From a virus (Duplodnaviria > Heunggongvirae > Uroviricota > Caudoviricetes), in IMG/VR virus record IMGVR_UViG_2703718822_000004: a stretch of 25,062 nucleotides of DNA. The stretch is one strand, 5' to 3'. Under the pieces are notes generated by a model that ran no database searches, had not been told where the DNA came from, and worked only from the letters and a program-made list of their open reading frames with translations. The position numbers and the translations under genes are program-made. Positions 16,739-17,410 of this stretch are shown here, one piece after another (positions within the stretch are counted from its first letter, which is position 1; each line of letters starts with the position of its first letter).

Positions 16739-17065
16739 TCAGGGTGCAGAAGGACTAAAGATAAACGTTTTCTTCACGCCTTTACGCGGCCTGTCCTTCT
16801 CAAATCGCCATTTTGCCATCGCCTTTACAACCTGCTCATCAAACAGATGGTGCGGCTCTGAACGGATAAACTCAATTCGGGTGACAGTACCATCAGCACC
16901 AATATCAAACTTCACATCAACCCGTCCCTTTATATAATTTGCCGCTGCATAGGCCGGATATTGTGGTAATGCCTTAACCAACTGTCGGGGCATATCTGTT
17001 TTATGTTGCGTACAGCCCATAACCAGAGAAGACAACAAAATAATTAACGGAAGATTTCTTTTCAT
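16739..17065 (-). CDS. Lipoprotein consisting of a TonB C-terminal domain
   Basis: Lipoprotein signal MKRNLPLIILLSSLVMG-C, then PQYPAYAAANYIKGRVDVKFDIGADGTVTRIEFIRSEPHHLFDEQVVKAMAKWRFE..., which aligns motif-for-motif with the E. coli TonB C-terminal domain ([55 protein letters not shown]) as recalled. Start chosen at the second internal ATG (GGGA spacing); the ORF track begins at GTG 17080. Confidence 0.8.
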   Translation of the reverse strand: MKRNLPLIILLSSLVMGCTQHKTDMPRQLVKALPQYPAYAAANYIKGRVDVKFDIGADGTVTRIEFIRSEPHHLFDEQVVKAMAKWRFEKDRPRKGVKKTFIFSPSAP

Positions 17066-17410
17066 TTTCATTCCCGGCACAGATAAGAATAAGTCTTATT
17101 CTAACAATGCCACCCTGTCGGTCATCAATCCTCTGCTTAATGGCAACGACAATTATCCGACTTAAATCACAAATCAGACACATGACATAACAGAGCTTGC
17201 GAGGTAACACATCGTCCGGTTTCTTCCACCATCGCACCGGACCAGCGACCATGAGGGGACAACGCCGCGCTCCGTTAACGCGGTAAACCCCGGTGTGTAT
17301 CGTTTTTGATTATCCCCGCACACTCGCGCAGAGGAGTCTCCCTGTCGGGCTGCGGTCTCTGTTAATACGGGAATACGGCGACAATACCGCGCCATGGATA
17401 ATAAGGTCGC

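Follow-up and report, generated by a model that had tools for sequence, protein, structure and literature searches.

The window analysed here is a 25,062-nucleotide stretch of DNA from IMG/VR virus record IMGVR_UViG_2703718822_000004 (Caudoviricetes), which corresponds to the late region of an HK97-like lambdoid prophage of Escherichia coli, of the Shiga toxin (Stx) type. On its minus strand we find a gene for a lipoprotein of 108 amino acids (aa). The protein belongs to the TonB_C domain family, yet it is not a TonB energy transducer. Its sequence points to a prophage-carried outer-membrane lipoprotein made from a TonB domain, for which a role as a decoy of TonB is plausible. TonB-dependent transporters are the main entry for siderophores, vitamin B12, many phages, group B colicins, microcins and cefiderocol-type siderophore antibiotics. 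If the decoy role is true, the gene would represent a new class of prophage-conferred resistance that is natural, mobile and possibly iron-regulated; the lipoprotein could also be an unrecognised modifier of pathogen iron uptake. Even if the decoy role is wrong, our literature search found no described function for such a lipoprotein, which consists of a TonB domain and is predicted to belong to the Fur regulon. A decoy would also be a ready-made tool or lead against the interaction between TonB and the Ton box, a proposed drug target (PMC9841981).

The lipoprotein gene and its TonB domain

The gene and the two parts of its product lie as follows.

16739–17065, minus strand: coding sequence of the lipoprotein with the TonB C-terminal domain (CTD), 108 aa, stop codon included (open reading frame (ORF) list, Prokaryotic Genome Annotation Pipeline (PGAP), start-codon support, ratio of nonsynonymous to synonymous substitution (dN/dS))
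17012–17065, minus strand: lipoprotein signal peptide and lipobox LVMG|C, with Cys18 followed by Thr at +2 and Gln at +3 (PROSITE-type lipobox rule; per-residue confidence (pLDDT) of the AlphaFold2 model)
16757–16990, minus strand: TonB CTD, residues 26–103, equivalent to E. coli TonB 153–230 (Pfam, NCBIfam and PDB sequence matches; AlphaFold2; Foldseek)

A preliminary description of the window had placed the gene at 16739–17080. The ORF is real and lies on the minus strand, but read from GTG to stop, at 113 aa, it is no more than the longest possible frame; translation almost certainly starts at the ATG at 17065, for a product of 108 aa (MKRNLPL...). We chose this start because PGAP uses the same ATG for the identical protein WP_000828070.1 ('TonB family protein'), because a GGGA Shine-Dalgarno sequence lies 6 nucleotides (nt) 5′ of it, and because the other possible ATG, at 17071, reads ATA in 12 of 68 near-identical IMG/VR copies.

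The product consists of the N-terminal part MKRNLPLIILLSSLVMG followed by the mature part CTQHKTDM-PRQLV...FIFSPSAP. The junction LVMG|C18 satisfies the PROSITE-type lipobox rule, and the n-region is positively charged. The rule is likewise satisfied in 20 of 20 diverse family members, in which the +2 residue is T, S, A or V and in none Asp. Since Asp never stands at +2, sorting to the outer membrane is expected, which would place the lipoprotein in its inner leaflet. The AlphaFold2 pLDDT is about 50 over residues 1–20, as for a signal peptide. In the window protein, 7 residues form the tether between Cys18 and the domain, and the mature length is 91 residues; among the 20 members, the lipid-modified Cys and the first conserved Pro are separated by 6–12 residues.

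Comparison with the 71%-identical allele of phage 21 resulted in a dN/dS of 0.12, with a proportion of synonymous differences (pS) of 0.65, near saturation, and a proportion of nonsynonymous differences (pN) of 0.16. The ratio is 0.14 for the signal peptide and 0.11 for the domain. The gene is thus intact and under strong purifying selection. EDL933-era and old GenBank notes already call it TonB-like, with the labels 'partial tonB-like membrane protein' and 'TonB fragment'; these labels are misleading because of the purifying selection and because the lipobox is kept in all 20 members. As far as we could determine, the existence of the gene is known, while its lipoprotein architecture, family, slot, Fur boxes and proposed role are undescribed.

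The assignment to the TonB_C family rests on several concordant matches. The Pfam model TonB_C (PF03544) is hit with 56 bits (cut-off 24.6, E = 5.5e-15) and TIGR01352 (tonB_Cterm) with 56.5 bits (cut-off 27.1, E = 2.6e-15). A phmmer search of PDB sequences returned the CTD chains of E. coli and Salmonella TonB with E-values of ~3e-16 to 2e-15, and BLASTP aligned residues 26–103 with E. coli TonB 153–230 without gaps, at 31 of 78 identities (40%). The full-length TonB equivalog models of NCBIfam, including PRK10819, gave 50–73 bits, below their cut-offs of 265–448; they are missed because the protein has neither anchor nor spacer. The TonB N-terminal transmembrane anchor is absent from the 108-aa protein, whose N-terminus is a cleavable lipoprotein signal peptide, and no proline-rich periplasm-spanning spacer is found in the 7 residues between Cys18 and the domain.

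The AlphaFold2 model, computed from a 23-sequence family alignment, has a pLDDT of 95–98 over the domain (residues 30–100), with the order short strand-helix-strand-strand-helix-strand. In a Foldseek search against the PDB, the top 11 matches were all CTDs of TonB or FusB, the best being 1u07, 2gsk_B and 2grx_C. Superposition on BtuB-bound TonB (2gsk_B) gave a template modelling (TM) score of 0.91 and a root-mean-square deviation (rmsd) of 1.1 Å, and on FhuA-bound TonB (2grx_C) a TM score of 0.92 and an rmsd of 1.2 Å; across 1U07, 2GSK and 2GRX the rmsd is 1.1–1.3 Å. In the transporter complexes, the Ton box adds as a parallel strand to β3 of the TonB CTD (PMC11658791). This strand (residues 94–103, GVKKTFIF) is predicted to be intact in the lipoprotein. 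Only SPSAP follows it, so that there is no counterpart of the last residues of TonB.

At the residue level, the TonB core positions Y163-P164, A167, G174, V176, D181, G186, V188, P198, F202, A209, W213, R214, E216 and P220 are kept, and the positions with little or no variation in the family, P161 among them, are mostly TonB core positions. The YP motif is Y36-P37 (TonB Y163-P164), and the aromatic core consists of F53, F75, W86, F88 and F103 (TonB F180, F202, W213, Y215 and F230). Invariants specific to the family are Y39 (at TonB R166), N43, S69 and the 'HLFD' motif H73-L74-F75-D76. The classical Ton-box-contact residue Q160 of TonB is Leu33 in the window protein. In TonB itself, the Q160L substitution leaves the protein functional and suppresses Ton-box mutations of FhuA and colicin M (PMC11658791).

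The preliminary description had recognised the lipobox LVMG-C, the likeness to the TonB CTD and the missing anchor and spacer from the letters alone, and all of these are borne out here, as is the match to TonB CTD structures that it proposed as a check. Its 'QYP' block does correspond to TonB Q162-Y163-P164, but this is not the classical contact glutamine, which is the residue replaced by Leu33.

Family distribution and Fur boxes

The family was delimited by an exhaustive HMMER search and a scan of one genome per species. Of 5426 complete E. coli genomes, 1616 (about 30%) carry an intact gene, ~415 of them with the window allele and ~1200, including CFT073 (C_RS07335), with the phage 21 allele. 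The carriers include Shiga toxin-producing E. coli, CFT073, ST131-type strains and Klebsiella prophages, and also Stx1a phages. By both searches, the short lipoprotein form (roughly 104–120 aa) is confined to Enterobacterales, namely to Escherichia prophages, Klebsiella, Raoultella, an Enterobacter sp., several Pantoea, Erwinia and one uncultured Enterobacteriaceae; more distant matches were all ordinary or multi-domain TonB proteins. The diversity among viral contigs comes from a scan seeded with members from outside E. coli, as the initial scan gave near-identical E. coli copies only. In the BFVD viral structure library there was no significant TonB-CTD-like match (best E-value 0.078).

The gene had been described as phage-borne. 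It is a prophage gene in the window, but the family is not phage-specific: several copies occupy ordinary chromosomal sites with no phage genes within 4–6 kb. Those of Raoultella and Klebsiella adjoin lacZ-lacI, those of Pantoea lie between metabolic genes, and one copy is inside a cellulose-synthesis cluster. In a rough neighbour-joining tree the family is separate from E. coli TonB, and prophage and chromosomal copies are interleaved. A gene for a DUF1440 membrane protein lies near the lipoprotein gene both in Klebsiella phage ST13-OXA48phi12.4 (L010 1277–1903) and on the Raoultella chromosome (L002 6731–7294). The two genes could be a linked cargo pair, or the Raoultella locus could be a decayed prophage end.

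Upstream regions were scanned with the 19-bp Fur consensus GATAATGATAATCATTATC, each site being scored as matches out of 19. Most relatives outside E. coli, phage-borne and chromosomal alike, have a canonical Fur box 25–48 nt 5′ of the start. Among chromosomal copies, the box is TGATAATTATTATCA in Klebsiella and Enterobacter (15/19, perfect 7-1-7), TGAGAATTATTATCA in Raoultella (15/19), TATAATGATAATGTTTATC in P. agglomerans (16/19) and TGAGAATGATT(A/C)TCA at five Pantoea/Erwinia loci (14–15/19); two further Pantoea copies score 13–14/19. In nearly every case the chromosomal box is the top Fur match of its 8-kb locus. Over 139 kb and both strands, only four distinct sites reach at least 15/19, and two of them are boxes of lipoprotein genes. 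Prophage copies behave similarly: L173 has TGATAATCATTATCA (16/19) and L174, L176 and L179 have 15/19 sites, each topping its locus, and the Klebsiella-phage types L158 and L172 have 14/19 sites that are again the top sites of their loci. Altogether, the boxes of the relatives reach 16/19, include the perfect 7-1-7 form TGATAATnATTATCA, and occur in at least four unrelated promoter contexts, chromosomal and prophage. In the upstream multiple alignment, the Fur box is the sole conserved block. Representative positions, all found by consensus match, are given below.

L013 3967–3994; L002 5969–5993; L006 6037–6055; L012 3965–3989: Fur boxes of homologues
L173, L174, L158 and L172, each about 3967–3985: Fur boxes of homologues

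From these boxes, we strongly predict that the family is tied to Fur, that is, induced by iron starvation. On this basis, the Fur regulon of Klebsiella, Raoultella, Pantoea and Erwinia would include a member not listed before.

Upstream of the window copy we noted two features.

17098–17125, minus strand: sigma-70-like promoter candidate, ATGACC, 16-nt spacer, TAGAAT, with an extended −10 TG (consensus scan)
17086–17102, no strand: perfect 17-bp palindrome AGAATAAG-N-CTTATTCT (that is, AGAATAAGTCTTATTCT), overlapping the candidate −10 (pattern search)

The promoter candidate is a pattern match only, two such sites being found in the region against 2.1 expected, and is conserved in the 68 IMG/VR copies. 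A scan of the region gave no terminator-like site 3′ of the lipoprotein gene. The palindrome is nearly invariant across the 68 copies and occurs once in the window and once in the 35 kb of a related prophage (L001), with 0.04 expected. By manual alignment it agrees at 13 of 15 positions with a weak Fur site (13/19) in the Erwinia prophage copy L011, and this site aligns within the Fur-box block of the family. The palindrome therefore looks like a diverged, possibly degenerate derivative of that box. We also considered it as a repeated phage repressor operator, and its single occurrence in each of the two sequences speaks against this.

Proposed decoy role and its alternatives

The preliminary description proposed that the lipoprotein could occupy the TonB boxes of outer-membrane transporters and so block TonB-dependent phages and group B colicins. 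We regard this mechanism, non-productive competition with TonB, as the most economical reading and hold it tentatively, as a serious possibility short of a probable one. The lipoprotein, whose entire mature part is a TonB CTD on a 7-residue tether, would lie under the outer membrane, in the inner leaflet. Acting at the periplasmic mouth of TonB-dependent transporters, the exposed β3 edge would capture their Ton-box strand by β-augmentation, and the Ton boxes of TonB-dependent colicins would be captured likewise. Since it has no anchor, no spacer and no contact with ExbBD, the lipoprotein could not pull and would compete with TonB non-productively. TonB-dependent entry of T1, phi80, group B colicins and microcins would be damped, at the cost of damping siderophore and B12 entry too. 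Expression would be expected from the phage late transcript and, in most relatives, also from an own Fur-controlled promoter, in which case it would coincide with the derepression of the transporters themselves. The Fur boxes of the relatives would then mean co-regulation with the presumed transporter targets. Ton-box binding, competition with TonB and any exclusion phenotype are what we infer from these features.

Engineered TonB derivatives are relevant here. Periplasmic fragments of TonB reportedly shielded cells from phi80 and colicin M, and Koedding et al., in 2004, are said to have found TonB C-terminal fragments of at least 96 residues inhibitory and those of at most 86 not. The mature lipoprotein, equivalent to TonB ~145–235, is close to this threshold. 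Periplasmic TonB 33–239, 103–239 and 122–239 inhibit the activity of the TonB system and iron import, an effect ascribed to competition for the transporters (bioRxiv 10.1101/2020.01.05.895219; Howard et al. 2001 via PMC9841981).

Several observations weigh against the decoy role. At the presumed interface, the position of TonB R166, a residue that reportedly touches FhuA, is an invariant Tyr in the lipoprotein family, and the equivalents of R158 and Q160 vary. Geometry is a further concern: the N-terminal end of the CTD points away from the outer membrane in TonB, whereas in the lipoprotein a link of only 6–12 residues would tie this end to that membrane. A protective level of decoy would starve the cell of iron just when the Fur-controlled promoter is active, a cost that would be hard to reconcile with the stable chromosomal copies in Raoultella, Klebsiella and Pantoea. 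Speculatively, this cost could be eased if colicin Ton boxes emerging at the mouth of the barrel were captured in preference, or if the decoy acted by tuning below saturation. The phage 21 allele, the commonest in E. coli, has no Fur box, and the window palindrome is weak by the Fur consensus (13/19, a score equalled by 19 of 500 shuffles), so that Fur control of the window's own copy is doubtful. Finally, no PADLOC model matches the lipoprotein, and our full-text literature searches found no functional study of any family member. The wider picture of a natural 'anti-TonB', that is, a shield that responds to iron, is generic for receptors and wards off TonB-dependent phages and bacteriocins, spread by temperate phages of Enterobacterales and Fur-induced in many members, is offered with more reserve than competition with TonB as such; we consider it conceivable and rather doubtful.

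A rival reading is that of an accessory factor of iron starvation, a Fur-regulon member that would help or tune TonB-dependent uptake instead of blocking it. It could, for example, give the CTD of TonB itself or a periplasmic binding protein a docking site on the outer membrane, or keep Ton boxes ready for hand-over. Prophages would then carry the gene as a fitness moron for iron-poor host niches. In favour of this, canonical Fur boxes top the 8-kb loci in at least four unrelated promoter contexts, and the chromosomal copies are stable, with no phage genes nearby. TonB CTDs dimerise and bind non-transporter partners, and the FusB CTD, a structure match of our model (9hi3), binds ferredoxin. 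However, none of the loci examined has a transporter, ExbBD or siderophore gene beside the lipoprotein gene, Fur boxes are weak or absent in the E. coli phage alleles, and the sole experimental precedent for free periplasmic TonB CTDs is inhibition. Overall, we judge an accessory role unlikely, though worth keeping in view.

Alternatively, the TonB-like fold may serve another ligand, with Ton boxes irrelevant: it could bind peptidoglycan and so tether the outer membrane to the wall, bind a factor from host or serum as Bor/Iss does, or bind TonB itself. The invariants that TonB lacks (Y39, N43, S69 and 'HLFD') suggest a specialised surface, the gene adjoins bor/iss in phage 21 and CFT073, and its GC dip to 0.40–0.45 resembles that of other conversion morons. 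Most invariants are nevertheless TonB core positions and not a new surface, sequence and fold matches are to TonB/TolA-like domains only, and the predicted Fur control of the relatives points to iron and TonB biology. We therefore consider a different ligand quite improbable.

Prophage setting and comparison with known systems

On the minus strand, the late region carries in order lysozyme, an insert with a P22_AR_N domain, Rz with Rz1 embedded, a phrog_2571 remnant and the lipoprotein gene. After it come the convergent YlcI/YnfO gene, an HNH endonuclease, the small and large terminase, and the head and tail genes. The nearest neighbours are:

17659–18132, minus strand: Rz i-spanin, with Rz1 o-spanin embedded at 17700–17906; end of the lysis cassette (PF03245, E = 2.4e-39; PF06085, E = 6.9e-21)
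17411–17653, minus strand: truncated remnant ORF between Rz and the lipoprotein gene (positions 96–172 of 291 of the phrog_2571 profile; PGAP partial in a related prophage)
16407–16607, plus strand: YlcI/YnfO-family (DUF3950) gene, convergent with the lipoprotein gene (PF13132, E = 6.1e-20; PGAP)
13489–16365, minus strand: HNH endonuclease (16000–16365), small terminase (15147–15710) and large terminase (13489–15150) (ORFs, Pfam HNH, PGAP of near-identical prophages)

GC content is 0.40–0.45 over the lipoprotein gene, against 0.55–0.58 in its flanks. In its place between functional modules and its deviant base composition, the gene is like a lambdoid 'moron'. Phage 21 and the CFT073 prophage share the arrangement S-R-Rz/Rz1, bor/iss (opposite strand), lipoprotein gene (late strand), cos and terminase; the Klebsiella phage has holin, lysozyme, small genes, lipoprotein gene, HNH and terminase. 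The slot between lysis and terminase genes is kept in at least six prophage sequence types despite unrelated holins, lysozymes and terminases, and IMG/VR prophage contigs of 30–70 kb keep it with holins of either the S21 type or the Phage_holin_8/3_7 type. In an Erwinia prophage remnant, the gene adjoins two holin genes. The lipoprotein gene is thus a mobile cassette of the lysis/packaging junction. The 'bor position' given to it in the preliminary description fits phage 21 and CFT073, where it adjoins bor/iss, but unlike bor it is co-oriented with the late operon, and late read-through transcription is therefore expected.

Over its full length, the protein matches phrog_1267 ('Rz-like spanin', lysis category) with E = 2.6e-42, and in prophages the gene always comes directly after the genes for holin, endolysin and spanins, in the same orientation. 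That the protein takes part in lysis, as a spanin or another late accessory, is nonetheless very improbable. The window and phage 21 each possess a complete Rz/Rz1 pair of their own; the C-terminus KKTFIFSPSAP is not hydrophobic, so that a u-spanin transmembrane segment is missing, and the domain is globular; proline-rich o-spanin character is lacking, and the gene is neither embedded in nor overlapping an i-spanin gene; and the chromosomal homologues have no lysis genes nearby. We rejected spanin identity on these grounds, and the phrog_1267 label was probably transferred from gene position. Weaker still is the notion of a functionless captured fragment of host tonB, suggested by the wording of the old GenBank notes and by the truncated pseudogene just upstream: it is effectively refuted by the dN/dS of 0.12 with synonymous sites near saturation, the purpose-built signal peptide kept in 20 of 20 members, a family branching far from E. 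coli TonB (40% identity) and 1616 genomes with an intact copy.

Other parts of the late region deserve mention. The non-coding stretch 17215–17395 (about 3190–3360 in L009; also in L140), 5′ of the lipoprotein gene, is, in an alignment judged by eye, better conserved against the phage 21 and CFT073 prophages than the gene itself (~74% at the nucleotide level), and is probably the tail of the truncated phrog_2571 gene. A structured RNA in these ~170 nt was rejected, there being no Rfam match at E ≤ 1 and folding z-scores of −0.05 and +0.39. A full-length OmpC-type porin gene (1096–2250, minus strand; PF00267, E = 5.9e-144) stands among the tail genes, flanked by genes for a 'phage tail protein' and 'minor tail protein L'. 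The same insert is labelled ompC in the related prophage of strain FHI_NMBU_10, and CFT073 has an ompC-like gene 5′ of the lysis cassette. This porin gene looks like a second outer-membrane moron of the same prophage. Within the lysis cassette, the P22_AR_N (antirepressor N-terminal domain) ORF (18396–18845, minus strand) lies between lysozyme and Rz, where a related Stx2b prophage has a DNA methyltransferase; the spot appears to be a second variable insertion site of the late operon. At 9016–11276 (minus strand), two abutting ORFs of 454 and 299 aa are annotated by PGAP as one 'frameshifted' portal gene in two related prophages, and they may be separate portal and protease genes instead of a pseudogene.

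Among known systems, the CTD of E. coli TonB (1U07, 1XX3, 2GSK, 2GRX) is the closest to the lipoprotein, with the same Pfam domain, the same predicted fold and the YP motif and aromatic core in common. The lipoprotein differs in having F for Y215, Tyr for R166 and Leu for Q160, and its chain is 4 residues shorter at the C-terminal end, where the tail of TonB is missing. Its N-terminal lipid would attach it to the membrane opposite that of TonB, without contact to ExbBD. HasB, FusB and TonB2 are diverged TonB CTDs with dedicated partners; FusB and TonB2 are significant fold matches of our model and HasB a weak one (E 0.059). All three keep an inner-membrane anchor and an ExbBD-type motor, and none is a lipoprotein.

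Engineered periplasmic TonB fragments, such as those of Howard, Herrmann, Stratilo & Braun (2001, J Bacteriol 183:5885) and the ompT(ss)-TonB33-239 of Postle's laboratory, resemble the lipoprotein in being a CTD minus the energy-coupling part. They inhibit transport of ferrichrome and ferric citrate (Howard et al. 2001 via PMC9841981; bioRxiv 10.1101/2020.01.05.895219), and by analogy they provide a direct functional precedent for a decoy. Those fragments are laboratory-made, soluble, 118–207 residues long and overexpressed, whereas the lipoprotein is natural, lipid-anchored, of 91 mature residues and under selection.

The Llp protein of T5 and the Cor protein of lambdoid phages are also small phage lipoproteins of the outer membrane's inner leaflet, and they inactivate FhuA from the periplasmic side. 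They are specific for FhuA and act allosterically on its plug; a TonB-CTD decoy would instead be aimed at the Ton box, which is generic. Searches of Pfam, PHROG and PDB folds gave TonB-type matches only and no relation to Llp or Cor. The cor gene lies near tail-fibre genes, unlike the slot of the lipoprotein gene, and none is annotated in the related prophage, which has a gpJ tail tip. Bor/Iss of lambda is likewise an outer-membrane lipoprotein moron at the junction of lysis genes and cos, but the protein is unrelated, and bor is transcribed against the late operon while the lipoprotein gene runs with it. A further parallel is stx1, whose promoter is repressed by iron and Fur: it is a prophage moron in the late region under a host regulator, whereas Fur control of the lipoprotein is only predicted, and is questionable for the window allele. 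If the decoy mechanism is true, it would differ from that of every described superinfection-exclusion protein.

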